A stretch of 64,000 nt of DNA. It comes from Candidatus Uhrbacteria bacterium. GTDB taxonomy: Bacteria; Patescibacteriota; Patescibacteriia; UBA9934. A program made the translations under genes and the position numbers. Each line of letters opens with the position of its first letter. Positions within the stretch are counted from its first letter, which is position 1. Positions 4,441-58,453 of the stretch are shown here, one piece after another. Under the pieces are notes generated by a model. It was not told where the DNA came from, made no database searches, and saw only the letters and a list, made by a program, of their open reading frames with translations. The stretch spans positions 5,417 through 69,416 of the forward strand of contig JABHCP010000011.1 of assembly GCA_018673485.1 (NCBI GenBank), written 5' to 3'.

Positions 4441-4482
4441 TTATATTCAACATATGTCCGATCGGACATATGTTGAATATAA
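4441..4482. repeat. 42-bp perfect palindrome with CGATCG centre (ttatattcaacatatgtccgat|cggacatatgttgaatataa)
   Basis: 20-bp arms exactly reverse-complementary; member of CGATCG-centred palindrome family. Confidence 0.75.
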
Positions 4483-4539
4483 AAAAATGATCCCTACTAA
4501 TTGTAAGGATCACCTTATATCACTCAGGTTATTTTATTT

Positions 4540-5181
4540 TTAAAAATCATCAGCTGAAAGTGTTGGTACGGACTCAAGTTCTTTGTATAGATTAGCTTTT
4601 GCTTTTTCTAAATCTTTTGCATCTAATTTTTTGTATTCCGTTTCAATGTACGTATCGACCTTGGCAGCCATTTCCTTTGCGCGTTCAAGCTCGAGTTCAA
4701 GCTCCTGACCTTCAGTTTCAAGTGGCCCATAATTAAGTTCCATGTTTAGCTTAGAGTCTGCGGTGACAATTGTTCCAAGATCGATCGAGTGCCGTCTTAC
4801 ATTGCTTAAATCGCTGGTCGCAGCTCCGATTCGCTGTCGCAGTCCTTTGGATCCATTATGCAATCTAAGAATCGCATCTTTGTGACCAATATCAAATTGA
4901 TCAGCGAGTGTTCCATTTTGAGCTAATTCAGAAAGTTGCTCTAAGCTCATCTTTACGTCACCACCACCAATATTGAACTGATCAGTAATGTTGCTTAGCG
5001 AAGCGATTTCTCGTTTTGCATCCGCAAGGTCTAGTTTTAAATCCTGCATTAGATCTTTACCTTGCTCAAGAGAAGTTTTTTCAACTTGAGCCGCTTTGGG
5101 TGCAATATCAACGATTGGAGTGGCAGTATCAACAGTCGTAGTATCAACATCAGTGCTCGAAGTTCCACCGTCTAAAACCAT
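4540..5181 (-). CDS. hypothetical coiled-coil protein
   Basis: 213-aa ORF, no recognised domain. Confidence 0.5.
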   Translation of the reverse strand: MVLDGGTSSTDVDTTTVDTATPIVDIAPKAAQVEKTSLEQGKDLMQDLKLDLADAKREIASLSNITDQFNIGGGDVKMSLEQLSELAQNGTLADQFDIGHKDAILRLHNGSKGLRQRIGAATSDLSNVRRHSIDLGTIVTADSKLNMELNYGPLETEGQELELELERAKEMAAKVDTYIETEYKKLDAKDLEKAKANLYKELESVPTLSADDF

Positions 5182-5230
5182 ATAAAATTTGTTACTTATT
5201 ACAAGATTATTGTAGCAGTTTTATCAATTA

Positions 5231-5470
5231 GTGCGAGTTTTATCCACAGGAAGCTTACCCCCTGAGAGTCCAACTCCCGAGAGTTCGACTCTGGTTTTGT
5301 TGAGCTATGACTATATCCATAGAATGATAAACCCCCACGTCACGATGACGCGGGGGCGAGGTGCGGCGCTAGGTGTTGTCCTGGCTGCGGAACGGGGCGG
5401 TCAGCTCGATCTCCAAGCGGCCCTTACGGGTCTTGGAGTTGCAGAAACACGGTGTATATTTGGTTCTTAA
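5231..5470. ncRNA. GC-rich structured segment, candidate ncRNA of unknown class (possibly RNase P-like; not confirmed) or GC-rich mosaic repeat
   Basis: about 60 percent GC island in AT-rich intergenic region between two minus-strand genes; multiple stems (cccccacg/cgcggggg, ctccaag/cttggag); segments weakly resembling RNase P CR-I and CR-IV but P4 pairing not satisfied; overlapping ORF 5231-5470 judged spurious. Confidence 0.3.
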
Positions 5471-5486
5471 CATAAAAAATATATCC

Positions 5487-5516
5487 CTGCGTTCGGTGAC
5501 GTAGGGATATATTTTG
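5487..5516. terminator. hairpin with flanking A/T runs, likely terminator of minus-strand gene 5530-6132
   Basis: atatccct...agggatat stem followed by atttt. Confidence 0.5.
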
Positions 5517-5529
5517 GATTTTGATGTTC

Positions 5530-10862: not shown

Positions 10863-10992
10863 GAAAAACCGCCCTAATCACCATTTCGAAGGCCGTTCGA
10901 CGGTCGAGAAATCTTCTGACTTCGATCGAACTCAAGAAGATCTCTCACCCCTTCGGGGATTCGAGATGGAAGATCAGTTGGCGGTTTTTTGG
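10863..10992. repeat. structured element B (paralog of element A): A-run, closing stem aaaaaccgcc/ggcggttttt, hairpin atcttct-gacttCGATCGaactca-agaagat, C(UUCG)G tetraloop hairpin, T-run
   Basis: direct alignment to 4193-4338; likely elaborate bidirectional terminator or small RNA. Confidence 0.6.
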
Positions 10993-12530: not shown

Positions 12531-12574
12531 AAATAAAGCATGTAAGCGACGATCGTCACTTATGTGCTTTATTG
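12531..12574. repeat. near-perfect 44-bp palindrome with CGATCG centre (aaataaagcatgtaagcgacgat|cgtcacttatgtgctttatt) in divergent promoter region
   Basis: arms reverse-complementary with 2-3 mismatches; CACTTATGTG arm shared with palindromes at 46110 and 46184. Confidence 0.6.
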
Positions 12575-13132: not shown

Positions 13133-13313
13133 GGGGTCAGGTCGTTAATTGTAGCGTTTACTACTTTTACAAGGAGTTATTCATTTTTTCGGTTTTATAA
13201 AAAAATTCAACAAAACGATGACGGTTTGTTTTCCCTTTAAAAACATCAAAACGCTACAATTAACGACCTGACCCCACGATGTACTACAATTAACGACCTG
13301 ACCCCACGATGTA
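13133..13313. repeat. inverted-repeat element: 24-bp IRs ggggtcaggtcgttaattgtagcg / cgctacaattaacgacctgacccc around an AT-rich spacer, right end carries perfect 30-bp tandem duplication
   Basis: read directly; lies 90 bp upstream of tRNA-Ser. Confidence 0.65.
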
Positions 13314-13402
13314 AAATAAATGCTTCACATTCGACGCGATCGTGACACATTTGAAACATTATTCTTGATATTTTTTTGATAAATGCTATCATCGCGACAC
13401 AC

Positions 13403-13525
<123 letters not shown>

Positions 13526-23349: not shown

Positions 23350-23424
23350 ATCCGGGGTAGCTCAGCGGCAGAGCAGCTGACTGTTAATCAGCGGGTCGTG
23401 GGTTCGAACCCCACCCCCGGAGCC
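23350..23424 (+). tRNA. tRNA-Asn (anticodon GTT), CCA encoded
   Basis: acceptor tccgggg/ccccgga, anticodon loop ctGTTaa, T-loop ttcgaac. Confidence 0.85.
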
Positions 23425-24961
23425 AAGTGGAACGATCAGTAGAAGTGCTGATCGTTTTACTTTTGAGTGATGCTAAATCTAGCACGTAATTAAAAGGTTT
23501 TCTTAACTCAAAGACCAGTTCTCGATCCTTCATTTTCGGGTTCTGAACAAGGAAATTTATGAATTGCTGTTTTTCGTGCAATTCAGAACCGTCAAAGATT
23601 TCCTTAGCTCTGCGTGCAACAGAAAGTACTGTACCTACAGTTGTTTTATAGTCGTAGTCTGCTTTTGAGTGTTCTTCTAGTTCAATTCCGAGTTGCTGTA
23701 TGCGGTCATTGAGCTGCTGCAACTTTTTGTCATAGTCTTGCTTAGTAATACTCGGTTCTGGCTTTGTGATCTCATCTAAATAGAAGTCCAGTAACGCATC
23801 TTTTCTTTGCGTTAGCATATTGTGATCTTTTTGGATGCGTGCAACTTGTGCCTTGTGAAAACGTACTTCAGCCTCAGAGGTCTTTCTAAGCTCTTCTACG
23901 AGCTTCTGTTGGGTCTTTTCGGTTATTGTACCGAATCGATCGAGTAATTCATTTATCGGCTGTAGAAGAACTTCCTCATTCACGTATTGTCGTTTACAGT
24001 TACCCTTGGAATTGGTACAGCTATAGTAATTCCGTTTCCAGCCATTTTTTTTACGTTTTTCTTCTGGCGATATAGCACAGCCACAATCAGCACAGGTGAG
24101 TAGACCTGCAAAGATAAAATCCTTCGTTGGTTGCTTGCTACGAGTTTTTCTACGCTTATTACTCACATCCTTACATTTATCAAAGAGTTTTCTGTCAATG
24201 AGTCGAGAATATGGATGTGGGTGTCTTGAATCATACTTCTTAGAATAAAAAATTCCGTAATAATATGACTCGTTTAATATTCTGTGGATTGTGCTAGGTG
24301 AAAGAGGGTTTCCTTTTCTGCTTCTCAGTCCTAGATTCTCAACCTCAGCAGCGATAGATTTTAGTGAATGTAGACCCGTAGCGTACATTTCAAAGATTTT
24401 GATAATTAGGTGCGCACGTTTTGGATCAGGAATAATAGTTTTGTTACCAGATAAATCCTCTGTATTCAAATACCCAATAGGGCAATAGCCCATTGTTTCA
24501 CCTTTACGACGCTTTGTTTCAAATGCTCGCTTTACATTGTCCGAAATAACGTTCGAATAATAACCTGCCATTACGAGATTCATTTCGAAATGCGTTTTCT
24601 GACCAGCAGATAGATCTGAGTTAATAACTTGTCCATCAGAAACAAAATGAAGTTCAATCTTTCCAGCTTTAGCCTGTTCATAGAGTTCAGCAACTCTACG
24701 ATCAAAGATGTTTCTAGAAAAACGATCAACTTTGTCAAAACAGACGGCAATTTTTTCGTCCGTCTGTTTCAAATAGTCCAGTATCTTGTCAAATTCATCT
24801 CGTTTTGTTTTGTAGGCACTTTCGTCGAAACTGAATGTTTCTGCGACTTCAAATTGCTTTCTTTCGCAATAATCTTCGATGCGCTTAATCTGTGCTGGGA
24901 GTGAATTGCCAGCATCTTTTTGTTCTTCGGTAGATACCCGTGCGAGGATTACTGCTTTCAT
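23384..24961 (-). CDS. large serine recombinase (phage-integrase type)
   Basis: N-terminal resolvase catalytic domain AVILARVSTEEQ, recombinase domain, zinc ribbon CADCGCA, coiled-coil; C-terminal 14 codons overlap tRNA-Asn. Confidence 0.85.
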   Translation of the reverse strand: MKAVILARVSTEEQKDAGNSLPAQIKRIEDYCERKQFEVAETFSFDESAYKTKRDEFDKILDYLKQTDEKIAVCFDKVDRFSRNIFDRRVAELYEQAKAGKIELHFVSDGQVINSDLSAGQKTHFEMNLVMAGYYSNVISDNVKRAFETKRRKGETMGYCPIGYLNTEDLSGNKTIIPDPKRAHLIIKIFEMYATGLHSLKSIAAEVENLGLRSRKGNPLSPSTIHRILNESYYYGIFYSKKYDSRHPHPYSRLIDRKLFDKCKDVSNKRRKTRSKQPTKDFIFAGLLTCADCGCAISPEEKRKKNGWKRNYYSCTNSKGNCKRQYVNEEVLLQPINELLDRFGTITEKTQQKLVEELRKTSEAEVRFHKAQVARIQKDHNMLTQRKDALLDFYLDEITKPEPSITKQDYDKKLQQLNDRIQQLGIELEEHSKADYDYKTTVGTVLSVARRAKEIFDGSELHEKQQFINFLVQNPKMKDRELVFELRKPFNYVLDLASLKSKTISTSTDRSTWLRGWGSNPRPAD

Positions 24962-26115
24962 AATTTCAAAAGGTTTTCAAGGAAGTCATTGCCGTTATTC
25001 AAATCAATAGCATTGTTTGGTTTCTTGATAAGTTTTCGTATTGTTTCTCCTTTGAATTGCGTAACGCCACGAGAATTTCTGCCCGCCCAATGTTTTAATA
25101 CGATTGTATTTTTTAGAAGGTCTTTTTGGAAAATTGATACAAGTACCTGATTAGCGATCCCGTCTGGCTCAATGCCTATAAAGTAGAAAAGGAAGACACT
25201 TTGTTCTTTAGAAAGAAATTCAAGTAATTTATCGATATTGTAGGCCTTTGGATTTGAATTTAGAACAAGAACCTTTGTTTTAATGTCTGTACACGTCTTA
25301 AAGTCATCAAAATTTCGCAAATAATCACCAAGTTGGTTGTTGGTGGAAAATTTCTTTACCTTAGTACTTTGATCTTTAATAGCTTTTACTATTTCCTGCT
25401 TTACGTTATCGTCGTTGCCCGCTATTAGATATTCAATAAGTCGCCCTCTGAGATTCACGTTCTCAATGAAGCTAGCTAGGAGGATTTCATTTCTGTATTT
25501 ATTACATCGCTCGTCAAGATCTTTTTTGAGAGTCAAGTAATCATTAGAATGTGAAAAATCGATCGATCGTTCTACTGCATTTGTAATATTACTTAATTCT
25601 TCTGAATCAGGCTGAAACTTCCTTCCACTTGCAACGATATCATTGGTAGCCGAAACCAGCCTTGCCAGATTTCCTTCAAAGCCAATCTCTTTATGGATTG
25701 CAAATAGCTCATCAAAATTGCTTGGCTCATTCGAGATTCCATTAAATGTCTTTTCAATATCAGAACCATTAAAGCTACCCCTGATATTATCGATTCTCAG
25801 CTCTTGAGAACTGTGACTAATTTTTTTCAGAAATGTAGAATTTGCCAGCATTAGGTAGTTTTTTTCAGGGGTAGCAAGGCAGACTATAAAAGGAAGTTCA
25901 TCGAATTTATGAAGGTTAGATAGAGATAGAACCGTGTTTGAAAAACTTTTACTTTTAGATGAACTGAACCTGATTGCAAATTCATCATTGTAATATACAG
26001 ACCTGTCTTTTGTTAGTGAAAACCTTTCCGAAACAAGCTTAGCTAGGCTAGATTTATTCATCTTGCCTGCACTGCCGTTTATTACCTCTAATAGGTCTTT
26101 TATAAAATTCATCAT
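24958..26115 (-). CDS. putative Type II restriction endonuclease (by operon context)
   Basis: 385-aa ORF immediately downstream of and overlapping the methyltransferase gene; no recognised motif. Confidence 0.35.
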   Translation of the reverse strand: MMNFIKDLLEVINGSAGKMNKSSLAKLVSERFSLTKDRSVYYNDEFAIRFSSSKSKSFSNTVLSLSNLHKFDELPFIVCLATPEKNYLMLANSTFLKKISHSSQELRIDNIRGSFNGSDIEKTFNGISNEPSNFDELFAIHKEIGFEGNLARLVSATNDIVASGRKFQPDSEELSNITNAVERSIDFSHSNDYLTLKKDLDERCNKYRNEILLASFIENVNLRGRLIEYLIAGNDDNVKQEIVKAIKDQSTKVKKFSTNNQLGDYLRNFDDFKTCTDIKTKVLVLNSNPKAYNIDKLLEFLSKEQSVFLFYFIGIEPDGIANQVLVSIFQKDLLKNTIVLKHWAGRNSRGVTQFKGETIRKLIKKPNNAIDLNNGNDFLENLLKL

Positions 26116-26117
26116 AT

Positions 26118-27056
26118 TTATTTCTGATCAGACAAGGAATTGCGTTCCCAAAACACACCGTCTTTATATCCTTGAATATCTGGTGATTCATCGGCCATGG
26201 TCAACCTTTTTTCAGCCAAGCAACAATATTCCTCGTTTAATTCAATTCCTATATATTTTCTACCAAGCTTTTTGGCAACAACGGCAGTTGTGCCTGATCC
26301 GATAAATGGATCTAAAACTAAATCATTTTCATTGGTTGAAGCTAATATGGTTTTAGCGACAAGCTTTTCTGGTTTTTGAGTTGGGTGATCGGTATTTTCT
26401 GGCATTGACCAAAAGGGGATCGTTATATCCGTCCATAAGTTGGAAGGGTGTGTGAGTCTGAATTTCTGACCTGCTTCGTGTTGCCAATCTTTCGCTTCTC
26501 CATTGACACGATAAGGTGCAATGACTTTTCTTTTAAGTTTCACAGCATCAACATTGAAAATATAGTCACTAGATAATGTTGCAAACCAGACATCTTCAGA
26601 ACAATTTTTCCAGTTTGATTTAGCTCCTCTACCTTTTTCACGTTCCCAAGTTATTCGGTTCTGCACGATTACATGCCTCTTCAGTACATTAAAAATCGCT
26701 TGAGACGTTTTCCAATCACAACAAACATAAATGGAGGCTGTCGTCTTTAATTTTGGTAAAAGTAGAAGAAACCAATTTTCAAAGATACTTTCATATTTTG
26801 ACTGTTTTGTTTGTTTGAACGTGTTGTTACCATAGTCCTTTGTGAGGTTGTATGGCGGATCGAGAAACAGGAGATCGACAGAATTATCCTCAACCAATCC
26901 AATCCCATCTTCCATGCTAAGATTGATAATCTTATTGAGTGGACTAGTATTCTTGCTGGATTTTGAGAGTAAATGTTTTTTTAGATCGCTTATTTCTTCT
27001 TCAGCAACGAATGTAGTCCGATTATTTTTTGCCCGTTTTTTTTCGTAATTTTTCAT
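26118..27056 (-). CDS. beta-class DNA methyltransferase (N6-adenine or N4-cytosine)
   Basis: motif IV DPPY (LLFLDPPYNL) N-terminal to motif I (DPFIGSGTT) = beta permutation. Confidence 0.8.
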   Translation of the reverse strand: MKNYEKKRAKNNRTTFVAEEEISDLKKHLLSKSSKNTSPLNKIINLSMEDGIGLVEDNSVDLLFLDPPYNLTKDYGNNTFKQTKQSKYESIFENWFLLLLPKLKTTASIYVCCDWKTSQAIFNVLKRHVIVQNRITWEREKGRGAKSNWKNCSEDVWFATLSSDYIFNVDAVKLKRKVIAPYRVNGEAKDWQHEAGQKFRLTHPSNLWTDITIPFWSMPENTDHPTQKPEKLVAKTILASTNENDLVLDPFIGSGTTAVVAKKLGRKYIGIELNEEYCCLAEKRLTMADESPDIQGYKDGVFWERNSLSDQK

Positions 27057-27060
27057 AATG

Positions 27061-27240
27061 TTACTTTTTTGAATCCTCTAAAAATTTACTAAAATCCTTC
27101 TTCATAATTCTGTATTCTTTACCAATCTTATAAGCATTTAGTCTCCTTGATTTTATGTATCGGTAGATTGTCATGATATTAACCTGCAATAGCTCTGCAA
27201 GATCTTCGGCTTTATAGAACTCTTTTTCTTTCTTGGCCAT
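27061..27240 (-). CDS. excisionase-family helix-turn-helix DNA-binding protein (59 aa; not in ORF track)
   Basis: MAKKEKEFYKAEDLAELLQVNIMTIYRYIKSRRLNAYKIGKEYRIMKKDFSKFL matches excisionase/MerR-type HTH pattern; sits 5 nt upstream of methyltransferase. Confidence 0.55.
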   Translation of the reverse strand: MAKKEKEFYKAEDLAELLQVNIMTIYRYIKSRRLNAYKIGKEYRIMKKDFSKFLEDSKK

Positions 27241-27256
27241 ACTCTAATATTATACT

Positions 27257-27520
27257 TTACTTTTCTTTACAGAGCCAGTTATCTAAAACCCCTTTGCCAT
27301 TCTTAAAATCTTCGTCAATGTCATCCCATTGACCGTCCGAGTTGTCGATAGCATCTTTTCCAGCGTGGTACATCATGTCCATGACCGCTGAATCGACCTT
27401 CTCATTTTCTATCAAGGCCATTTTCATTCTATTTAGTTCAAGGGGACTTAGACGTCTGTCTAGATTAGCCTCAAGAAAATCCTGAGCATAGTCCTCCCAT
27501 AGATAAAATAAGCAATCCAT
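27257..27520 (-). CDS. hypothetical acidic protein
   Basis: ORF only. Confidence 0.4.
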   Translation of the reverse strand: MDCLFYLWEDYAQDFLEANLDRRLSPLELNRMKMALIENEKVDSAVMDMMYHAGKDAIDNSDGQWDDIDEDFKNGKGVLDNWLCKEK

Positions 27521-27523
27521 ATA

Positions 27524-28642: not shown

Positions 28643-28842
28643 AAGATTCAGGGTTAATTCTCTTGTCTACGGATATCAAGAGATCGAAGAAGCTAACTAA
28701 AGACTCAAAATCAGGTGCTTCTGATTCATCTTCAATATCTTTAGGTTGTTCTTCTTGTTGATTTAACATAAAAGCCAAGAGCTTTTGCTCCCAGCTTAAA
28801 TGAACGGCTATTTATAAATGTTTGTCTTAATTTATAAACGAT

Positions 28843-29997: not shown

Positions 29998-29999
29998 GG

Positions 30000-30039
30000 C
30001 TATACTTTACTCCATGCAGTAAACAATAGTAAAGTATAG
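30000..30039. promoter_or_regulatory. operator-like inverted repeat ctatactttact-N16-agtaaagtatag in 48-bp divergent intergenic region
   Basis: 12-bp perfect arms; third half-site tatactttact at 27251-27261. Confidence 0.55.
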
Positions 30040-30045
30040 ATCAAT

Positions 30046-32210: not shown

Positions 32211-32262
32211 CAGTTCTGAACCCGTTCAGTATTCGGAGCCAGTGGGACTCGAACTAGTAATG
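32211..32262 (+). promoter_or_regulatory. upstream module U1: palindrome CTGAACCCGTTCAG + TATTCGGAGCCA + hairpin/T-run, precedes gene 32306
   Basis: shared with modules at 32941, 34345, 35475. Confidence 0.55.
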
Positions 32263-32305
32263 GTTCGAGTTTTGCTTTATAGTTAGAAAAGAATTTAGAT
32301 CTGAA

Positions 32306-32887: not shown

Positions 32888-32940
32888 TTTATAGATTTGA
32901 TACTTGATTAATTGCAAGCTCAAGCTGATCCCATCTCACC

Positions 32941-32998
32941 GTCCTGAACCCGTTCAGTATTCGAGGCCAACGATAAGCCTCAGTTTTCACTGAGGTTT
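32941..32998 (+). promoter_or_regulatory. upstream module U2: CTGAACCCGTTCAG + tattcgaggcca + terminator hairpin cctcagttttcactgagg-ttttt; TATAAT 5 nt before ATG 33071
   Basis: read directly. Confidence 0.55.
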
Positions 32999-33070
32999 TT
33001 CGTTTATAAATCCACTGACCCCGGATGGGGTTCGAACTGTGATAGAATTATTTGTGAAATATAATCATTT

Positions 33071-34270: not shown

Positions 34271-34344
34271 ACAGTAGTAAAAGGCATTTGCTGAAACCTA
34301 TCCATACTGATTTTAACTATTTTATAAATCCCACACAGTTCGGT

Positions 34345-34423
34345 AATCAGGTAATCCTTGGAGCCAATAATCCTGCGCTAATTTCAGTGGAGGATTTTTG
34401 ATACCCAAATGTAATTCAGAACT
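34345..34423 (+). promoter_or_regulatory. upstream module U3 (degenerate palindrome, ggagccaataatcct hairpin, T-run, TGgTAAAAT extended -10)
   Basis: near-identical to U4 over about 70 nt. Confidence 0.55.
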
Positions 34424-34444
34424 ATGGTAAAATATTTGTGTATG

Positions 34445-35434
34445 AATGAATTTTTGAAAAGTCCTGAAGCTAAAAAATCGGAGCCAGAAGTTAAGTTTTT
34501 CTTTTCAGCACATGGAACACCTGAAGACTATAGGGGTATCGAGCAGGCATTCAGTGAAGCTGATATTTACGTACTTGAATCTCATGCTTGGAAAGATGGC
34601 GATCTCGAAGAATTAAGATCAATCGCAAGTGGGGACACTGTCCCAACTCATATTAGTGAGGGACGAGAACCGAAGGATGCTATAGAATACGAGGAGGAGC
34701 TTTTATATAAGAGCGGAAAGCGGGTTGAGATCGTAGATGTGCCAATGGAGCATGAATTAGCTAATGAAGATGATGGCTCGAGCAAATACAATGATATTGT
34801 AGATCGGTTTGTAGCACAGGGGGATTTAAATAGCTCAGTAGAGAGCTTGCAGGATACGGCAAGGCAAAATGCTGACTACATAAAAAAGAAAGATGATTAT
34901 GTAGAAAAAGAACTCAAAAAACTCATAGACCAGATTGCAGACGAGTCCCCAGAGGCAAAGATACTTGTACAAATGGGTTCTTCACATTCGGGAATCTCGC
35001 ATAAATTAAGAAAAGAGGGCGTGGCTAAGCGAGTAATGAATGAAGTTCGTTATGATTTCAACGATGAGCTTTTACGAACTTTTCGCTTCAATAAGGAGCC
35101 GAATACGGAGTTAATTTCAAGATCATTAATTGAACAGACAATAAAACGATTCTTTTTTGATGAAATGATAAAGGTTCCATATTTATTAAGAAATAAATTT
35201 TTCAGAGATACTCTTTCGGACATTTCCACTGAACAAGTCCAACAAATGGGACAGATTATGGAGTCTAGATACTTTGACGAAATGATTATGGGAGGCGGTG
35301 ATGATACGCCCGAAACAAATAGAGTGATATTCGTCTATGCATGGGAGGCTGTGATAGGGTCTGATATAAATCTTCTAATATCCCAACTTGAAATGCAGGT
35401 CTCTAACGATGACAAGAAGGAAGATGATGTTTAG
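34445..35434 (+). CDS. hypothetical acidic protein (ORF track start 34424 lies within the -10 element)
   Basis: ORF; leaderless arrangement. Confidence 0.45.
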   Translation, partial: NEFLKSPEAKKSEPEVKFFFSAHGTPEDYRGIEQAFSEADIYVLESHAWKDGDLEELRSIASGDTVPTHISEGREPKDAIEYEEELLYKSGKRVEIVDVPMEHELANEDDGSSKYNDIVDRFVAQGDLNSSVESLQDTARQNADYIKKKDDYVEKELKKLIDQIADESPEAKILVQMGSSHSGISHKLRKEGVAKRVMNEVRYDFNDELLRTFRFNKEPNTELISRSLIEQTIKRFFFDEMIKVPYLLRNKFFRDTLSDISTEQVQQMGQIMESRYFDEMIMGGGDDTPETNRVIFVYAWEAVIGSDINLLISQLEMQVSNDDKKEDDV

Positions 35435-35474
35435 GCGAATCGATGCATACTTTGATTAACTCTACCCCAATCAA

Positions 35475-35579
35475 CAGTCCTGAACCCGTTCAGTATTCGG
35501 AGCCAATAATCCTTCGCTAATTTCAGCGGAGGATTATTTATACCAAAATATAATTCAGAACTGGTATAATATTTCGTGT
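35475..35579 (+). promoter_or_regulatory. upstream module U4: CTGAACCCGTTCAG + tattcggagccaataatcc hairpin + T-run + TGgTATAAT extended -10, 9 nt before ATG
   Basis: read directly. Confidence 0.6.
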
Positions 35580-36302
35580 ATGGATAAAAATAAGCACAAG
35601 ATGATAGTCACCGCATCCTTTTTTAGCATTTTTCTTCTTTGCATATTAAATATAGGAATTATTTTTCTCGATTCACATGTAAGCTTCTGGGAAATGAGCC
35701 TTATGGTTGGATTTATATTATTAATACAAAGTATCTATCTACTCACACGAACTAAATATATTAAGGTAATATTTTTCATTCTGCTTGTGGTAGTTTCAAT
35801 AACATTATTTTTTGTAAATTCGCCATGGAAATTAATCGATACCTCTCAAATGTACTGGATTTGGCAGTATGAGAATTTAGAACCATATTCTTTTACTTTA
35901 TCTGGGCTTGATTTTGAAGCCCCATGCCCCTCCAGCCCCACAATAACTGATACTCAATTTAATTGTGAGAATGGTTTATTGAAAATCGACGTTACTCAAG
36001 ACAACGGCTTTGCTTTTGCGCTTGCAAGTAATGGAGTGTCCATAGGTCATGCACCGATGACTTACCCAGTCCTACATGGAATGTCGCCATTTTCTAGCAT
36101 ATCACTGCATCTGGATGAAGATAATTGCATAACGGCATTACCCCTAATCGCATATGAAGATGTTAGAATTGATTTTTCAGCAAAAGTTTGCGGAGATGAA
36201 GGTGATACTAAGGGTGCAATAACCTCACTTTGGGAACAACGTGCCGAACCTTTAATGAAAGGGGTATCATTCCCAGATGGAGGATACATTTCGGAGTATT
36301 AG
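35580..36302 (+). CDS. hypothetical membrane protein
   Basis: N-terminal TM helices. Confidence 0.5.
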   Translation: MDKNKHKMIVTASFFSIFLLCILNIGIIFLDSHVSFWEMSLMVGFILLIQSIYLLTRTKYIKVIFFILLVVVSITLFFVNSPWKLIDTSQMYWIWQYENLEPYSFTLSGLDFEAPCPSSPTITDTQFNCENGLLKIDVTQDNGFAFALASNGVSIGHAPMTYPVLHGMSPFSSISLHLDEDNCITALPLIAYEDVRIDFSAKVCGDEGDTKGAITSLWEQRAEPLMKGVSFPDGGYISEY

Positions 36303-36311
36303 ACTACATCA

Positions 36312-36929
36312 ATGATTAATATGACAAAGCAAATCAATAAAGTGAACTTCCTTATTCATCCTGGTTGGTTTTATGAATATGCAGTTCAAGATGCGGTGCA
36401 TTATGAAGGCAGTATAGATGAACAGGTTAGAGAAGCGGGTGAGAAGATGCTCGATAGTTATTTGAAACATGTGAAGAGCATTGGGGAAGATGAGATACTT
36501 TTTGTTTTCGCTACTTCATCAGTAGAAAGTATGTTGAACATGAAGGATGAGGGTTTTGGTAAGTCACTCGATACTCTGAGGGAAATAAAAGGTCAACTGG
36601 GAAGGCGTGCAATTATCATCACCGATCCTTTAATAGAAATTAGCAGTGGTGGCGAGAACGTATACAAGAAAGCAAGGCAAATGGCCTTAGCTAGAGGATT
36701 TGAATTTGGCAAGGATGTAACGAGTGAGGCATTTGGTGAGCAGTTGGGTAATTGTGTGGAAAATGGGGCAGAAAAATTCAATGAGATTGAAGGTTTTAGT
36801 ATAAAGACCCTTATTAGACCAGAGCTTTCTGACGCTCCCCATGAACTATTCGGTGAGTACGATCCCAAAGCTCATGAGAAGGAGATGCTCGAAGGTGAAG
36901 ATGGACTTAAAAGAGTTCGTTACAATTAG
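36312..36929 (+). CDS. hypothetical protein
   Basis: ORF only. Confidence 0.45.
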   Translation: MINMTKQINKVNFLIHPGWFYEYAVQDAVHYEGSIDEQVREAGEKMLDSYLKHVKSIGEDEILFVFATSSVESMLNMKDEGFGKSLDTLREIKGQLGRRAIIITDPLIEISSGGENVYKKARQMALARGFEFGKDVTSEAFGEQLGNCVENGAEKFNEIEGFSIKTLIRPELSDAPHELFGEYDPKAHEKEMLEGEDGLKRVRYN

Positions 36930-36944
36930 CCAATCAGCATTGAT

Positions 36945-37106
36945 ATGAATATTAAAATCAAAGTTTTACTTTTCATCTTAGCAATATTGACGGGTGTATT
37001 TATGTTCGTATATGCTGGAATAGATGACAGCCCAGGTGGGCAGTTAATCGGAGTCATAGTATCTATCTTTGGTGCCGTTAGTTTGATAGGGATTAAGAAT
37101 AAGTAA
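36945..37106 (+). CDS. small 2-TM membrane protein (53 aa), paralog of 40122-40298
   Basis: MNIKIKVLLFILAILTGVFMFVYAGIDDSPGGQLIGVIVSIFGAVSLIGIKNK; ORF-track antisense ORF 36926-37114 rejected. Confidence 0.5.
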   Translation: MNIKIKVLLFILAILTGVFMFVYAGIDDSPGGQLIGVIVSIFGAVSLIGIKNK

Positions 37107-44268: not shown

Positions 44269-46062
44269 ATGGCGCAGCCTTTACTCGAAGTTAATGGCGT
44301 TTCAAAGACCTACGGAAAGCAGGTTGTTCTTAACGATATCTCTTTTCAGATAGCCCAAGGAAAAAAGATTGCACTAATTGGCCGCAACGGAGCAGGGAAG
44401 TCAACTTTGTTGAAAATTCTAATCGATGAAGTTGAAGCTGATACGGGTAGCGTAAAATTATTTGACTGGACAAGAGTCGGTGTCATTCATCAAAATGAAG
44501 TTTTACCAACAAACAAATCATCCTTGGAGTATTTAGAAGAGCTAAGCGCCAAGCCTTCATGGGAAGTGCGTAAATTAGGAGCCAAGTTTGGCCTGCACGA
44601 TGATCACCTCACAAAATCACCCGGACAGCTCTCAGGGGGCTACCAGATGCGAATAAAGCTAACTGGAATGTTTTTGCAAGACCCGAACTTATTGTTCTTG
44701 GACGAGCCTGTCAACTATCTGGACTTGCAAACTATTTTATTGCTTGAAAATGTTTTAGCTGACTACAAGGGCAGTTTTGTTCTTGTAGCGCATGACCGAA
44801 CTTTTCTGCAAAACACTTGTGATGCGGTTTATGAGATTGAACGCGGAAAACTCACAACGTACAATGGTGACATCCAATCATTTTTAAAATGGAAGCAGGA
44901 GCAAGCCGAATTCACACTTCGCACGAATAAAAAGCTAGTAAAAGAAATGAAGCATCATCAAAAATTTGTTGATCGTTTTGGTTCAAAGGCAAGCTTGGCC
45001 AGCCGAGCACAGAATAAGGTGAAGCATATTTCACGACTTCGATCGAAAATTGTAAAAATAGATGTCGACCTCGCAACTACCAATATTTACATTCCTTCAA
45101 AAGAAGCACACCCCGGTGTTGCTTTGCATGTTGAAGATTTGTCCATCGGATATGAAGAGAATGTACTGAGTAAAGACATATCATTTAGTATCAATCGTGG
45201 CGAGAAGGTGGTAATAGTTGGTGAAAACGGAGCAGGGAAGTCAACACTACTGAAAAGCATCGTTGGGAAAATCAAACCACTGAGCGGTGAGGTTAAATGG
45301 TGGAAACATTCAAGTGTTGGATATTACGACCAGTTAACAAGCTCATCACTTGATGACCGTAATACCGTACTCGATCACCTAACTGAAAGTGCCGATAGTG
45401 CAACATCAGCTGAGCAAATACTCATGATGGCAGGAAACTTCTTATTTAAAGGTGACGACTTGGATAAGCGAGTCAACGTTCTGTCAGGTGGTGAACGTGC
45501 ACGGCTCGCACTCGCCGGCGTGCTTTTGAAAACTCACAATGTTCTGATTTTGGACGAGCCCACCAACCACATGGATGTTGAAACTACTGACGGGTTAGCG
45601 CTAGCACTCAAAAACTATAAAGGCACGGTTATATTTGTTTCGCATGCCCGAACTTTCGTAAGTACACTAGTTGATCGAATCATCGAGGTTCGACACGAGT
45701 CAGTTCGAGAATACATGGGAACTTACGATGAGCATGTTGAAAATGTGATGGAGTTGATGCGCGAGGATGTAAGTGATGCAAATTCAGACTTATCAGATGA
45801 GGGTAAAAGTGGAGATCAAGCATCGCGCAAAGAAAATTATGCGCTAGTAAAAGAAAAGCAACGTGAGCTAAAACGAATCGACGCTCAAATTCAAGTGTTC
45901 GAGTTGGAAAAAAGCGACATTCTAAAATTCTTTTTCGAAAATCCCACAGACTACTCACCACCCCGAGCCCAACGACTAGGACAACTAAAAGATGAACTAG
46001 AAGCAATTGAGAGTAAATGGGTGAAAATTTCAGAAGAGATCGAAGCTCTTAGACAAAACTAA
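44269..46062 (+). CDS. ABC-F family ATPase (two ABC domains, no TMD)
   Basis: two Walker A (GRNGAGKST, GENGAGKST) and two LSGG signatures. Confidence 0.85.
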   Translation: MAQPLLEVNGVSKTYGKQVVLNDISFQIAQGKKIALIGRNGAGKSTLLKILIDEVEADTGSVKLFDWTRVGVIHQNEVLPTNKSSLEYLEELSAKPSWEVRKLGAKFGLHDDHLTKSPGQLSGGYQMRIKLTGMFLQDPNLLFLDEPVNYLDLQTILLLENVLADYKGSFVLVAHDRTFLQNTCDAVYEIERGKLTTYNGDIQSFLKWKQEQAEFTLRTNKKLVKEMKHHQKFVDRFGSKASLASRAQNKVKHISRLRSKIVKIDVDLATTNIYIPSKEAHPGVALHVEDLSIGYEENVLSKDISFSINRGEKVVIVGENGAGKSTLLKSIVGKIKPLSGEVKWWKHSSVGYYDQLTSSSLDDRNTVLDHLTESADSATSAEQILMMAGNFLFKGDDLDKRVNVLSGGERARLALAGVLLKTHNVLILDEPTNHMDVETTDGLALALKNYKGTVIFVSHARTFVSTLVDRIIEVRHESVREYMGTYDEHVENVMELMREDVSDANSDLSDEGKSGDQASRKENYALVKEKQRELKRIDAQIQVFELEKSDILKFFFENPTDYSPPRAQRLGQLKDELEAIESKWVKISEEIEALRQN

Positions 46063-46109
46063 AGATAAAAACAACTCAATATCATCTCGGCTTCGTTGAA
46101 ACTACAATT

Positions 46110-46147
46110 TTTTTCACTTATGTCCCGATCGGGACATAAGTGAAAAA
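46110..46147. repeat. 38-bp perfect palindrome tttttcacttatgtcccgat|cgggacataagtgaaaaa
   Basis: read directly; CGATCG centre. Confidence 0.75.
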
Positions 46148-46183
46148 TTACATATTCGATACGATCGCCTCAAATATGTAATA

Positions 46184-46229
46184 TTTTGACTTCACTTAAG
46201 GTCCGATCGGACCTTATGTGAAGTCAAAA
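46184..46229. repeat. 46-bp near-perfect palindrome ttttgacttcacttaaggtccgat|cggaccttatgtgaagtcaaaa
   Basis: one mismatch; CGATCG centre. Confidence 0.75.
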
Positions 46230-46301
46230 GGAAACTCCAATATTGAAAAACGAGAGTTTCCTATAAAAAACAAGCGGTTTTATACCGCTTGTTTTTTTAA
46301 T

Positions 46302-46955
46302 TTACTTTTTCTTTGGTGCCGGCTTCTTCTTTGCTACTGACTTTTTAGCAGGCTTTTTCTTAGCAGGCTTCTTTGGTGCCGGCTTCTTTACTGCTGGCTT
46401 CTTTTCCTTTTTTGGTTTCACTTCTTTCTTAGCTTTCTTTTCAGCTTTCTCAAGCTTCTTAACTTCCTCTTTCTGAACTTCTACCTCGATCTCATCCTCA
46501 TCAAAGTCGTCAGCGTAAAGCTCATCTTCAACTTCAGAGATTGCTCCAGTAAGCTCAGTTAGAAGCTTGATCATGTGATCCATCTTCACAACCATTGTCT
46601 TTAGGTGCTTTTCTACCTCCTTACCACCTGAATCTGGTGCTGGTCGCTGTCCTCGTGACCGGTCATCTCGTCGTGGTCGGTCAGAACCTCTAGATCGGTC
46701 ATTGTCTCGGCCTCGATCTCTATCACCACCCTCATCATCTCTTACGAAACAATCAGAACAGTAAATTGGCTTTCGACCGTTTGGCTTAAATGGAACTTCG
46801 CATGAAGTATTACACTTCGCACACGTTGCAGGATGCATCTGTGGTCGATCGTTTCCGTAACCACCTCGATCAGAACCACGGTTAGAACCACCACCTCTAG
46901 AGTTGCCTCCGCCTCTCCAGTTATCAAAACTCGAATCATTATTGTAATTTCCCAT
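46302..46955 (-). CDS. RG-rich CxxC-x17-CxxC zinc-ribbon protein (VPF-P...RP-YC motif) with acidic linker and histone H1-like KPAxKK tail
   Basis: CAKCNTSCEVPFKPNGRKPIYCSDCF; C-terminal KKPAPKKPAKKKPAKK repeats. Confidence 0.6.
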   Translation of the reverse strand: MGNYNNDSSFDNWRGGGNSRGGGSNRGSDRGGYGNDRPQMHPATCAKCNTSCEVPFKPNGRKPIYCSDCFVRDDEGGDRDRGRDNDRSRGSDRPRRDDRSRGQRPAPDSGGKEVEKHLKTMVVKMDHMIKLLTELTGAISEVEDELYADDFDEDEIEVEVQKEEVKKLEKAEKKAKKEVKPKKEKKPAVKKPAPKKPAKKKPAKKSVAKKKPAPKKK

Positions 46956-55557: not shown

Positions 55558-55595
55558 AATTACACATCTGAGTCGATCGACTCAGATGTGTAATT
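55558..55595. repeat. 38-bp perfect palindrome aattacacatctgagtcgat|cgactcagatgtgtaatt
   Basis: read directly; CGATCG centre. Confidence 0.75.
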
Positions 55596-55622
55596 ACACC
55601 AGTCAAGTCTGTCAGCCTAAAA

Positions 55623-55653
55623 TAAAAAAACGAGGACAATCCTCGTTTTTTTA
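55623..55653. terminator. bidirectional terminator aaaaaaacgagg-acaat-cctcgttttttt
   Basis: 6-bp stem between A- and T-runs, between convergent genes. Confidence 0.7.
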
Positions 55654-55661
55654 TTTTACCT

Positions 55662-56468
55662 CTATTCGCAACCCATTTCAGTGCAAAGCCATCCTATCTG
55701 ATCATTGCAACTACATTCATTGCAAATATTTTGATAACTATCTCCAACATGATAACTAATGTTATCAGCTTCGCATGTGTATGGTCGGTGAGAAAGTGTC
55801 TTAATCAACTCCCAAGAATCATCGTCCATATCATCACCCATCTCAAATTGATCGATTTCATCTACATAAAAAGTTCTTATGCCCCAGTCATCATATGCCT
55901 GATCGATATGATCTTCTGCATAACGAATTTCCGATCCATCAAAATAATAACTATTTGACGCTGAAGGATCATCAGGATTATAGGCAAATAATAAAGAGCC
56001 TTCAGGTACCTCACCAGCTTCCAATGGTGCGCCTACAGTATATGAGGGCCAGAAAGCCTCTGAAGTATCACGAACGTATGTCCACCATAAATCTCCGTAA
56101 AGCTCTATCGCATCCGACTCAGACGCTATCAATCTAAGCAATCCACCAGGCTCAACTGCATAAACATCATCAGTGCTTGGCATTGTTAATAAATTCGTAC
56201 CAGGTTGAAACGTGACAACACCACCAATCGGGTATGTTGACAACTCATCACAAGAAACGTCGATAACATCGTTGAAATCCATATACCAAGTGAAGTATGT
56301 TGTCTCATCAGGAAAGACCCAACGTTCATCTGCATCTGATAAATAATAGACTGATGAGTAATCCGCGCATTTAATAAGAGAATTGGTCACCAGTGGACGT
56401 AAGGCATATGCAGAGCTAAACACTGACCCAGACAACGCCACCAACAATAAAACAGCAAGTTTTTTCAT
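55662..56468 (-). CDS. secreted protein with Cys-rich C-terminus
   Basis: signal peptide; C-terminal CNECSCNDQIGWLCTEMGC. Confidence 0.5.
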   Translation of the reverse strand: MKKLAVLLLVALSGSVFSSAYALRPLVTNSLIKCADYSSVYYLSDADERWVFPDETTYFTWYMDFNDVIDVSCDELSTYPIGGVVTFQPGTNLLTMPSTDDVYAVEPGGLLRLIASESDAIELYGDLWWTYVRDTSEAFWPSYTVGAPLEAGEVPEGSLLFAYNPDDPSASNSYYFDGSEIRYAEDHIDQAYDDWGIRTFYVDEIDQFEMGDDMDDDSWELIKTLSHRPYTCEADNISYHVGDSYQNICNECSCNDQIGWLCTEMGCE

Positions 56469-56477
56469 AGGATGTGA

Positions 56478-57872
56478 TTAAAAAAGTTTATCAATTATTA
56501 CTATGATACTAAAGAATCCAAAGAATGCGAATATTAATCCCATGATCAACTTGCGCCACAACCTCGCTCGTGCAAATTTTGGCAATGCTTTTTGGTTTAG
56601 GTATGTGACAAGTCCAACATGCACGAACATCGCAAATGCATTAATGACGGCACCAAGCACAATTAGTGTTTTTGGCTCTGAGAAATTAAGTAAAAAGAGC
56701 AGGGAACCAAATGCAATTTGTGCCCAAACAAAACCGAAATAAATTCTAGAAAGACACACGTTCGCATCTTTACCATTTTTTATCTTAGTTATCGCAAGAT
56801 TCTCCGCCATTATCCTTGAGGTCGAATCCATAACACCAAGCTGAGTCTGGAAAAGCATTATCACGACTACTATCAAGAAAAGAACGCCAGCCCAAGGCCC
56901 AATAACAGCGCCGATCGCTGAGCCTTCATGGATCACAAAATTAATACCCTCAGCAGTTCCTTCGACCCCATACGTTGTCGCATAGGCGAGAATCATCAAC
57001 AATAAGATTGAGATAGCCCCAATAAGCCAAAATACTATCGCATGTTCGATGCTAACGCGTCTCCACCACACATTAAAACGTTTTTTCGATTCTGGAGTAA
57101 TCTCAAAATCCTTACCTTCAAGATCGATCTTTTTCTCATTTTTCAATATTTTAAATAATCCTGAAATCTTTTGAGCGTACTTTCCCATTCCATATCCTTT
57201 TTCTTTAATATAAATTGACTGTGTCAGATTTAAGTTTCCACCAGCGCCAGCATAAGCGAATGCTCCTAGGAACGTCGCCAATACAATTCCTTCTGGCATA
57301 AACCTATATCCTTCCCCCAAACCAACCACACCTTGACTAAGTGCAACCCAGTCCGCACCATCGGTGAGAAGTATCACTAAAATAAATACAAATGGAACTC
57401 CCAAAAGAATAATCGTCTTAGTGATTCGCTCCATCATTCCATAAACTGTTTTTCCAGCACTGAGTATCAAGCCAATCAATACTAAGAATCCAATAGCCAC
57501 AAATCGATGATCTTCAAACCCCACGATGGATGAAAAAACCTTCGCTGATGCTGCGATAATTCCCGGTATACCAAATCCTAAAAATGTGGAGAAGATGAAC
57601 CACGCCGGTGCTAACTTCCAAAACTTAGCAATCCCCACAAACACGCTCTCACCCTTCACAAGCGCATAACGCTCAATCTCCATATTCATGAAGTACTGGA
57701 ATGTGATTCCAATCACCGCACCCCAGGCAATACCTAGTCCATAATTTGATGCTAAGTACGGCCACAAAATCACCTCACCCGACCCCAGTCCAAGGGCAAG
57801 TATAATAAAACTCGGTCCGATCAATTTCTTAAGCGGTAGTGCCTTTGGAAATTCTTTTTTCGATTTGGTCAT
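56478..57872 (-). CDS. multi-pass membrane transporter, family unassigned
   Basis: 464 aa, 11-12 predicted TM helices. Confidence 0.45.
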   Translation of the reverse strand: MTKSKKEFPKALPLKKLIGPSFIILALGLGSGEVILWPYLASNYGLGIAWGAVIGITFQYFMNMEIERYALVKGESVFVGIAKFWKLAPAWFIFSTFLGFGIPGIIAASAKVFSSIVGFEDHRFVAIGFLVLIGLILSAGKTVYGMMERITKTIILLGVPFVFILVILLTDGADWVALSQGVVGLGEGYRFMPEGIVLATFLGAFAYAGAGGNLNLTQSIYIKEKGYGMGKYAQKISGLFKILKNEKKIDLEGKDFEITPESKKRFNVWWRRVSIEHAIVFWLIGAISILLLMILAYATTYGVEGTAEGINFVIHEGSAIGAVIGPWAGVLFLIVVVIMLFQTQLGVMDSTSRIMAENLAITKIKNGKDANVCLSRIYFGFVWAQIAFGSLLFLLNFSEPKTLIVLGAVINAFAMFVHVGLVTYLNQKALPKFARARLWRKLIMGLIFAFFGFFSIIVIIDKLF

Positions 57873-58061
57873 ATGAGAACATTATATCAGAATTATTGAC
57901 ATAAATAGCACACCCATATATTATCGCATTAGTATGATAAAGCGATTTAATTCAAATCAACCGCAGCCGATACTGACCATGATGGACAGCTCGGTATTTT
58001 GTTTATAGAAGATCAATTTTAAAAAGAATATAAAGCTGGCCAATCATGGTCAGCTTTTTGC

Positions 58062-58322
58062 ATGGAGACAATCATGCAGCCAACACGTCTCGTGATTGTG
58101 GCCGATGGCCACGATCTGACCAAAATCATCAACGTACTTGAATCCATTGGGATCAAGCCATCACAGGTCCACGTATCTGTCGATCAATGCAGTGATATAT
58201 TGATCGATCGGGGAGTGGCATTCGATATTCCGAAAGGACAAGTCTATGTGCGCAGATCAACTCCAAGGCGTGTGGGGTACGATGGCGTGACCGGCACCTA
58301 CAGCCACCTTGACAACGACTGA
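58062..58322 (+). CDS. hypothetical protein
   Basis: 86-aa ORF, moderately GC-enriched. Confidence 0.4.
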   Translation: METIMQPTRLVIVADGHDLTKIINVLESIGIKPSQVHVSVDQCSDILIDRGVAFDIPKGQVYVRRSTPRRVGYDGVTGTYSHLDND

Positions 58323-58413
58323 CTGTGAGATCGGGTCAAGCTAAAACTGGGGTCACTCGTGACCCCAGTTCCTCACACTAACTATCAAACTATTTATTAA
58401 ATCGATAAAATGA

Positions 58414-58453
58414 ATGTTTCACTAAGGTCTCGATCGAGACCTTAGTGAAACAT
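58414..58453. repeat. 40-bp perfect palindrome atgtttcactaaggtctcgat|cgagaccttagtgaaacat
   Basis: read directly; CGATCG centre; preceded by hairpin aactggggtcac-tc-gtgaccccagtt at 58345-58370. Confidence 0.75.

Follow-up and report, generated by a model that had tools for sequence, protein, structure and literature searches.

The window analysed here, a stretch of 64,000 nucleotides of Candidatus Uhrbacteria bacterium DNA (contig JABHCP010000011.1), carries in its intergenic spacers nine copies of a palindromic repeat that is centred on CGATCG. We favour, with a probability of roughly 55%, the reading that these copies belong to a hairpin-forming dispersed repeat of the candidate phyla radiation (CPR, Patescibacteria) that resembles repetitive extragenic palindromic (REP) elements, would be propagated and homogenised as DNA, and would be read by some factor via its CGATCG apex and a CAC step in its arms. 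Literature searches in a limited library brought up no account of repeats of this kind from CPR bacteria.

Nine palindromic copies in the window

The initial annotation had listed six CGATCG-centred palindromes, and both the sites and the quoted arms proved correct. Four of them are perfect, i.e. 4437-4486 with 25-nt arms, 46110-46147 and 55558-55595 with arms of 19 nt and 58414-58453 with arms of 20 nt, while 46184-46229 is a 46-bp palindrome with a single mismatched pair. Calling all six perfect or near-perfect was generous for 12531-12574, which has mismatches at 8 of its 44 positions and is plainly imperfect, and the first site, delimited before as 4441-4482, is indeed perfect but had been given too short bounds. 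An inverted-repeat scan together with a hairpin scan added three members (4359-4394, 46143-46186 and 13318-13361), and the covariance model R1, run unfiltered over the whole window, reports exactly nine sites, two of them outside its training set. The members are listed below, all without strand.

4355-4398: member with perfect 17-nt arms at 4359-4394 and an apex mutated to CGTTCG; covariance model 37 bits, E=1.8e-5, outside the training set; DNA fold -14 kcal/mol, z=-7.7; forms a doublet with the following member, 85 bp away
4434-4489: member, perfect 50-bp palindrome at 4437-4486, TTCAA-CATATGTC-CGATCG-GACATATG-TTGAA; DNA fold -22 kcal/mol, z=-12.5; flanked by two convergent genes, whose ends are terminator-like, and abutted by the minus-strand terminator-like site 4516-4484
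12531-12574: imperfect member, whose 11 inner pairs include 3 mismatches, every one a transition; covariance model 39.5 bits, E=4.9e-6; fold z=-4.6; in the divergent spacer between a udk-like gene (start 12510, minus strand) and an open reading frame (ORF) for a 144-aa membrane protein (start 12658, plus strand)
13318-13361: degenerate member, TTCAC-ATTCGACG-CGATCG-TGACACAT-TTGAA; covariance model 29 bits, E=1e-3, outside the training set; fold no more stable than that of shuffles (z=-0.9); closely precedes the promoter-like site 13365-13392 of tRNA-Ser (gene at 13403)
46107-46150: member, perfect 38-bp palindrome at 46110-46147, TTTTTCAC-TTATGTCC-CGATCG-GGACATAA-GTGAAAAA; covariance model 58 bits; fold z=-7.7; first of three tandem copies 3' of the ABC-F gene, unchanged in the same-species contigs L001, L002 and L116
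46143-46186: decayed member, TACAT-ATTCGATA-CGATCG-CCTCAAAT-ATGTA, 82% complementary; weak local covariance-model match of 19.5 bits; fold z=-4.1; centre-to-centre distances of 36 bp to the copy before it and 42 bp to the copy after it
46184-46229: member, CTTCAC-TTAAGGTC-CGATCG-GACCTTAT-GTGAAG, the one mismatched pair being T/A; covariance model 48 bits; fold z=-9.6
55558-55595: member, perfect 38-bp palindrome TTACAC-ATCTGAGT-CGATCG-ACTCAGAT-GTGTAA; covariance model 52 bits; fold z=-8.7; 17 nt past the truB stop codon and ahead of the bidirectional terminator 55618-55658
58414-58453: member, perfect 40-bp palindrome ATGTTTCAC-TAAGGTCT-CGATCG-AGACCTTA-GTGAAACAT; covariance model 55 bits; fold z=-9.1; ends 2 nt ahead of the ATG at 58456; its outer 8 nt on either side are the parS half-sites TGTTTCAC and GTGAAACA

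A chance origin of these palindromes is ruled out by 200 second-order Markov simulations of the window, in which the longest perfect arm measured 13 nt versus 19, 19, 20 and 25 nt in the observed sequence. Folded as single-stranded DNA, the well-preserved copies reach -14 to -22 kcal/mol (z -7.7 to -12.5). All nine members are intergenic, the only ORF over 4459 being spurious (72 aa), and the part of the window between 13.4 and 46 kb is free of them. No Rfam family covers the palindromes: only two tRNAs pass the gathering score in the window, and permissive scans of the spacers 4150-4560 and 46050-46310 returned generic hairpin noise only.

All ten intergenic CGATCG of the window stand at the apex of an inverted repeat, eight in family members and two in the structured elements A and B described below, in whose central hairpins (4251 and 10923) the core had rightly been noticed before; another 22 occur inside coding sequence. 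The total of 32 compares with 12.4 in dinucleotide shuffles (2.6-fold), whereas under a maximal-order Markov model CGATCG falls outside the ten most enriched hexamer palindromes (tenth ratio 1.25) and is therefore not globally enriched beyond its context.

These counts bear on the proposal that the palindromes mark a restriction-modification or methylation motif (PvuI-type CGATCG, Dam GATC) or a short iterated palindrome like HIP1, an explanation to which we attach hardly any probability. It could draw on the 2.6-fold excess, on the identity of CGATCG with the core of the cyanobacterial HIP1 and on a beta-class amino-methyltransferase encoded at 26118-27056. Moreover, relatives without the family have two to three times fewer CGATCG per kb (0.15-0.16 in the loci L003 and L123 versus 0.50-0.67 in the window and L121, all from small counts). 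However, GATC occurs 367 times where 372 are expected, CGATCG is among neither the most enriched nor the most depleted hexamer palindromes, and 22 of its occurrences are in genes. The HIP1 octamer, which requires a G-C pair at positions 19/26 of the alignment, is realised in only 5 of 47 members, and HIP1 is a bare octamer abundant in genes rather than the apex of 40-bp palindromes. The candidate methyltransferase sits in an integrated island and its specificity is not assigned. An m5C methyltransferase and restriction-like genes were seen nearby in L123.

Layout of the unit and pairing of its arms

Half-sites aligned on the centre and drawn as logos reveal a common layout, in which an A/T-rich flank, (TG)TTTCAC, N8, CGATCG, N8', GTGAAA(CA) and a second A/T-rich flank follow each other in a fully symmetric unit of about 34-50 bp. 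A single-stranded copy folds into a stem of 16-25 bp closed by a C-G pair with a GATC loop on top. The alignment set of 47 members, no two of them identical, was drawn from the window and from other contigs; none departs from CGATCG or from the A/T of the CA/TG step, and 46 keep the C/G of the step. This CA(C)/(G)TG step stands exactly 8 nt from CGATCG, both between copies and between distant CPR lineages. Of the 17 members that were not chosen by the search pattern, 88% have C at -14 and likewise 88% have A at -13, so that the geometry CA(C)-N8-CGATCG is truly conserved and not a query artefact. Only CA(C), not TGTTT, is conserved in these pattern-independent members; in the subset with TTTCAC, the box grows to TGTTTCAC by a T at position -19 (53%) and a G at position -18 (50%). 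The core and an outer motif are conserved, and the sites are one related family with the potential to form hairpins or cruciforms, as had been assumed.

In contrast to these fixed blocks, each N8 column contains three to four types of Watson-Crick pairs, yet the arms stay paired. The proportion of paired N8 cells amounts to 86.7% versus 58.8% in shuffles, a percentage that is biased upward by the pairing filter on the alignment. The covariation score is 0.682, compared with 0.175 in shuffles (0 of 500 reach the observed value) and 0.09-0.16 in registers slid by 1-3 nt. The initial annotation had taken such compensated arm changes as a sign of selection for structure, an argument that is weaker than stated. 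Quasipalindrome template-switch correction is an established mutational mechanism that perfects imperfect inverted repeats without selection (PMC7202029), and identical copies at several loci point to copying, not to compensation site by site. Hence, perfect arms need not reflect compensatory selection, because copying of a hairpin intermediate or template-switch correction would give the same picture. At L099 (6692-6803) a 112-bp palindrome with one mismatched pair surrounds the family core TTTCAC-GCACTAAG-CGATCG and adjoins a (TA)n run; symmetry in some genomes therefore reaches far past the 34-bp unit.

The same layout invites the alternative that the units are duplex sites of a dimeric DNA-binding protein, for example a ParB/Noc-like chromosome organiser or a global regulator, whose two monomers would each bind to the outer TGTTTCAC box as well as to the CGA core. 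Two conserved blocks with dyad symmetry at a fixed spacing of 8 bp speak for it, and the extended box of the TTTCAC subset is an exact parS half-site, the copy 58414-58453 reading ATGTTTCAC...GTGAAACAT. Nevertheless, we consider this explanation unlikely. If a protein read the two blocks, the non-conserved N8 would have no need of perfect self-complementarity, and the pattern-independent members, as said, share CA(C) but not the remainder of the box. Furthermore, the half-sites are 22 bp apart and not contiguous as in parS, no contiguous parS was found in the window or the fetched loci, and a ParB domain is absent from the Pfam families that are commonest in the flanking ORFs.

Distribution across Patescibacteria

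For the database scans we used the pattern TTTCAC-N8-CGATCG-N8-GTGAAA with unconstrained N8. The chance of a perfectly complementary N8 is 4^-8, i.e. approximately 1.5e-5 per site, and that of three or fewer mismatches is 2.7%. The species-representative genomes of GTDB gave 23 matches, 8 with perfect N8, 1 with a single mismatch and 14 with 4-8 mismatches, the non-palindromic ones mostly from high-GC genomes. The JGI metagenomes gave 63 sites, namely 24 perfect, 4 with one, 3 with two, 12 with three and 20 with 5-8 mismatches, and all but one of the perfect sites lie on A/T-rich contigs. The N8 sequences are wholly different between genomes and recurrent within a genome.

The palindromic GTDB matches are titled Candidatus Uhrbacteria (2), Patescibacteria group, Candidatus Saccharibacteria and "uncultured Gammaproteobacteria" (four loci in three genomes). 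The last title was checked for two of the three genomes (all but L038) and is wrong for both, where protein homology refutes it in favour of Parcubacteria/Uhrbacteria-like Patescibacteria: L056 (CAZIDX010000002.1) carries an Uhrbacteria-like ABC-F, and the named relatives of an L039 protein (L039/L058, CAYVLY010000001.1) are only Parcubacteria, Uhrbacteria or Patescibacteria. Judged from these sequence matches, the family is present in several Patescibacteria lineages. A viral origin was discarded, because IMG/VR yielded 30 non-palindromic chance matches with a 16-base pattern and none with the 18-base pattern.

Turnover, copying and arrangement

Among relatives compared at 72-84% identity, copies are missing from orthologous spacers and present elsewhere. 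The spacer between the ABC-F and zf genes of the window measures 239 bp and holds three palindromes; in L003, whose ABC-F is 80% identical, it is reduced to 44 bp with only the homologous terminator, and in L004-L006 (ABC-F 75%) it holds two of the structured elements in place of the palindromes. Conversely, L071 carries two members in a spacer where the counterpart genes of the window overlap, and upstream of ligA, a place that is empty in the window, L121 (udk 83%) holds two members. L121 also possesses a perfect member upstream of tRNA-Ser, i.e. in the same spacer as the window copy 13318-13361, with unrelated arms, and the alignment of these two is ambiguous as to orthology. No family members were found in L003-L005, L119/L120 and L123/L124 (9-22 kb each).

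Identical copies are found as well. Contig FLOH01001375.1 carries the 34-mer TTTCACATTTGTCCCGATCGGGACAAATGTGAAA letter for letter at two loci, and four further contigs contain it within other flanking sequence. Doublets are common, with distances of 55-100 bp and mostly of approximately 80-88 bp, and the tandem cluster in the window shows spacings of 36 and 42 bp. Across all classified loci, 19 copies lie in tandem, 8 in convergent and 6 in divergent context. This pattern of occupancy and copying is the behaviour of a proliferating and decaying DNA repeat, not of fixed regulatory sites.

The suggestion of an operator family of a global regulator, which had been among the candidate roles, was rejected for the missing positional conservation in relatives; moreover, convergent 3' spacers are as frequent as promoters, and contact with a protein would not call for self-complementarity in the variable N8. 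The same observations weigh on the broader assumption of a protein-binding site. Although the copies 12531, 13318 and 58414 are located in promoter regions, orthologous positions are not conserved, many copies lie between convergent 3' ends and identical copies occupy several loci.

A different view of the arrangement arises from small genes that are bracketed by directly repeated palindrome modules. Single genes of this kind occur in L088 (482-595 / 1022-1135, modules of 114 nt), L066 (98-266 / 1249-1417, 169 nt) and L089 (1601-1648 / 2039-2086, 48 nt), and the genes are unrelated, i.e. NUDIX, class II aaRS/AsnA-like and nucleoside deoxyribosyltransferase-like. Similarly, the segment from udk to tRNA-Ser, which is bracketed in the window by the copies 12531 and 13318, contains different genes in each relative. 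The units could thus be targets of a site-specific recombinase that mark exchangeable gene cassettes, either attC-like or dif/lox-like with arms of 11-14 bp and a 6-bp centre, and both the unrelated bracketed genes and the varying gene content would be expected under this explanation. The boxes GTTTCAC and GTGAAAC are one base each off the attC boxes RYYYAAC and GTTRRRY, and an 11-6-11 or 14-6-14 layout fits the core sites of tyrosine recombinases. We regard it, however, as quite improbable. Pfam scans of flanking and bracketed ORFs detected no integrase beside any copy, extrahelical bases are missing and the stem is too short for R and L boxes together. Three copies stand 36-42 bp apart without a gene between them, the centre-adjacent arms are variable, which is the opposite of dif/lox, and L121 has no member at the udk-side boundary.

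DNA or RNA level

The position of many copies behind genes suggests that their primary function might lie at the RNA level, as hairpins of 3' untranslated regions (UTRs) that serve as terminators, mRNA stabilisers or processing sites of an RNase such as RNase III. The copies at 46107-46229 (after ABC-F) and 55558-55595 (after truB) lie between the stop codon and the real terminator and are probably transcribed, 27 of 33 classifiable copies occupy tandem or convergent spacers, and the hairpins are very stable. Three window copies are even flagged as terminator-like, albeit weakly and with weak T tails. We nevertheless give this explanation a rather small probability. The symmetry holds exactly on either strand, and G·U pairs are no commoner than by chance, at 7 versus 31 other non-pairs among the 376 N8 cells. 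The units lack the U-tract that follows the G+C-rich stem of an intrinsic terminator, and their flanks, T-rich at the 5' and A-rich at the 3' side, have the reverse polarity of a bidirectional terminator. Separate canonical terminators stand beside copies (46265-46297, 55618-55658 and 4516-4484). The copies at 4355-4489 are located between two terminator-like sites and hence outside both transcripts, six copies fall in divergent spacers, and positions are not conserved. Some copies are certainly part of 3' UTRs and RNA-level side effects are likely, but taken together the members seem to have been shaped as DNA.

A probable REP-like repeat, with a proposed reading through its hairpin

Among the candidate roles that had been offered initially, REP-like elements remain the best. 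The family would spread and turn over as DNA in the fashion of REP/REPIN elements, via a hairpin intermediate (single strand or cruciform) that is recognised by a trans-acting, structure-specific enzyme. Such an enzyme would read the loop and the CAC step, whereas the middle of the stem would need only to pair. What holds the arms complementary may be the copying of a hairpin intermediate, template-switch correction inside each palindrome or a combination of the two, and slow compensatory selection site by site would not be required. Effects on the host, such as hairpins at mRNA 3' ends or altered local DNA structure, would then be secondary and site-dependent.

Several points weigh against this reading. 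Pfam scans of approximately 60 ORFs of the window, of 100 ORFs flanking members in approximately 30 CPR loci and of 10 bracketed ORFs revealed no Y1/HUH (Y1_Tnp) or DDE transposase, no integrase and no ParB; since a partner of the REP/RAYT type is single-copy per genome, this negative is weak without whole genomes. The asymmetric GTAG/CGTC tag of classical REPs is missing. Absence of copies at orthologous sites was seen at 72-84% identity only, and no recent insertion polymorphism was caught, the same-species contigs being identical across the palindromes. No target-site duplication is evident by eye in the flanks of identical copies, nor is an insertion boundary definable there. The scans were anchored on TTTCAC, CGATCG and N8 = 8, which makes the counts pattern-bound for family breadth and copy number. 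Finally, that CPR lineages of class rank keep one and the same loop and CAC step would fit a host function, too.

Instead of being selfish DNA, the repeats could then represent a CPR-wide, structure-gated DNA signal, a kind of split parS, in which extrusion of the central 22 bp (N8-CGATCG-N8') into a small hairpin or cruciform would juxtapose TGTTTCAC and GTGAAACA or present the GATC loop to a conserved host protein. This protein might be of the ParB/Noc type or a hairpin-specific recombinase or nuclease, and the units might serve as dispersed, supercoiling-dependent loading or recombination sites that would also bracket exchangeable single-gene units. We mention this idea as a speculative one of low probability.

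The REP-like repeat deserves attention for several reasons. CPR genomes are tiny and streamlined (~1 Mb), and dispersed repeats are unexpected there. Loop and CAC step are shared by Uhrbacteria and Saccharibacteria on an otherwise free stem, which implies a conserved factor that reads DNA (or RNA) hairpins in this large, uncultured group, and such a factor would be a handle for a new hairpin-specific transposase, recombinase or binding protein. It would likewise provide a marker for strain typing and genome dynamics in CPR bacteria and a natural data set on the maintenance of perfect palindromes. The interest would rise sharply if a partner protein were found or if the split-parS idea held.

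Gene setting and other repeats

The window encodes a divergent housekeeping set (PilM, prepilin peptidase, LigA, GatA, DnaG, RpoD, Lgt, TruB, ABC-F, GreA and a type IV pilus ATPase). The named relatives of its ABC-F protein are Candidatus Uhrbacteria or Patescibacteria, and its udk-like protein is a 100% match to an NCBI protein of "Candidatus Uhrbacteria bacterium". The same species appears in several metagenomes, where the contigs L001, L002, L063, L072 and L116 are 99.97-100% identical and carry unchanged palindromes.

Two larger elements of the window share the CGATCG apex and are related to the family without being members:

4190-4340, plus strand: structured element A, multi-stem, with a central hairpin GAGGGATCTTCT...CGATCG...AGAAGATTTCTC and its apex at 4251
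10880-10968, plus strand: structured element B, which shares the type of A; CGATCG at 10923

Element A has a predicted RNA fold of -63.6 kcal/mol for 166 nt and homologous elements in L004-L006 and L111; neither the Rfam scan of the window nor the permissive scan of 4150-4560 assigned it to a family. These elements outline a second Uhrbacteria repeat (window 4190-4340 and 10880-10968; L004 11780-12040; L111 230-275) with an outer stem CCATYTCGA...TCGAGATGG and a central hairpin GAGARATCTTCT-N5-6-CGATCG-N5-6-AGAAGATYTCTC, which occupies the ABC-F/zf spacer in L004.

Further palindromes were seen in relatives. The 80% relative L003 bears an identical 24-bp perfect palindrome, GCCATGCACCGTACGGTGCATGGC, directly 3' of two GIY-YIG domain genes (1105-1128 and 5044-5067). 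A different palindrome family, (GG)CACGTCRT-TCGCGA-AYGACGTG(CC), is found in a related metagenomic genome (L065 at 1084, 4355, 4530 and 11730; L108 at 12966 and 13128), again with an outer CAC...GTG step, here 5 nt from the 6-bp palindromic centre. In the window itself, the region 13135-13313 between the 144-aa membrane ORF and the tRNA-Ser promoter consists of a 24-nt inverted repeat (GGGGTCAGGTCGTTAATTGTAGCG / CGCTACAATTAACGACCTGACCCC) spanning approximately 90 nt, followed by an exact 30-nt tandem duplication (CTACAATTAACGACCTGACCCCACGATGTA x2), and a related-looking GGGGTCAC hairpin lies at 58345-58370.

The interval 23351-37000 appears to be an integrated element beside tRNA-Asn, with many further ORFs without Pfam match. 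Its large serine recombinase (23384-24961, minus strand) overlaps the 3' end of tRNA-Asn and is the sole recombinase of the window. The island also encodes a 385-aa ORF of unassigned family containing CGATCGATCG, a DUF2779 protein and the beta-class N6/N4 (amino-) DNA methyltransferase at 26118-27056, whose neighbour protein has no PDB relative.

Comparison with known systems

The HIP1 element of cyanobacteria (GCGATCGC) has the same palindromic CGATCG core and is likewise lineage-wide with an unexplained function (PMC5861425). HIP1, however, is an 8-mer that is hyper-abundant inside genes too, whereas the CPR core forms the apex of intergenic palindromes of 34-50 bp. The over-representation typical of HIP1 is not seen here, the octamer occurring once in the window (at 42050) and the G...C flanks being present in 5 of 47 members.

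The ParB-bound parS site (TGTTTCAC|GTGAAACA) is matched by the consensus outer 8 nt, which correspond exactly to both half-sites in the same orientation. In the CPR units, these half-sites are split by a 22-bp N8-CGATCG-N8 insert, and deletion of the 22 bp leaves TGTTTCACGTGAAACA. The density of approximately one unit per 7 kb in the window also differs from the few parS sites near an origin. No copy of the contiguous 16-bp parS TGTTNCACGTGAAACA turned up in the window, where as many as 3 mismatches were allowed, or in the fetched loci (870 kb), where as many as 2 were, and TGTTTCAC alone is not enriched in the window (5 versus 2.8 expected). The match of the arms to parS half-sites thus stands as an unexplained coincidence or lead.

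The attC sites of integrons carry the boxes RYYYAAC and GTTRRRY and measure roughly 55-140 bp. The CPR units resemble them in their outer boxes, in a variable but paired inner stem and in the proposed recognition by structure. Nevertheless, they are only 34-50 bp long and perfectly paired without extrahelical bases, form no cassette arrays and have no integron integrase in the scanned neighbours; with the boxes one base off, membership in the attC class was rejected.

The TIGR arrays of TIGR-Tas systems are known from CPR bacteria (PMC12045711; bioRxiv 10.64898/2026.09.09.750476). They are similar in their unit of approximately 36 nt, in which a conserved edge, 8-9 variable nt, a conserved middle, again 8-9 variable nt and an edge follow each other, and two window copies stand 36 bp apart. 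TIGR spacers A and B are, however, not complementary to each other, and the arrays (mostly 5-15 units) have UG...CCA boxes and an adjacent tas gene with a Nop domain. The complementary N8 arms, at most three adjacent units and the lack of box motifs exclude the CPR family from this class; no search was aimed at tas.

The remaining candidates are the REP, BIME and REPIN elements, which are mobilised by RAYT tyrosine transposases in Enterobacteria and Pseudomonas (PMC2817692, PMC3116915, PMC3733652). The CPR units differ from them in being fully symmetric, often perfect and hence without orientation, and in their conserved parts, which are the CGATCG loop and the CAC step 8 nt away. The classical REP tag, an unpaired GTAG or CGTC at one end of the stem (PMC3733652), is missing, given that GTAG, CTAC, CGTC or GACG occurs within 8 nt of the stem ends in 5 of 48 members, which we judge to be about chance level. 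Doublet partners differ in N8 and are not mutually inverted, and thus would not form the long hairpin of REPINs. The host belongs to the CPR, and no RAYT was found among the flanking, bracketed and window ORFs scanned. On the other hand, both families consist of short palindromic units (20-40 bp in REPs) that are extragenic, located mostly after genes, present in many copies and often arranged in doublets or clusters. With nine units of 34-50 bp in 64 kb and dozens more in other CPR contigs, the present repeats are small repeated extragenic palindromes in the literal sense. Both families combine a species-specific stem with a small conserved recognition motif, and in both the occupancy differs between related genomes. 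In behaviour, REP/BIME/REPIN elements are the closest known system.

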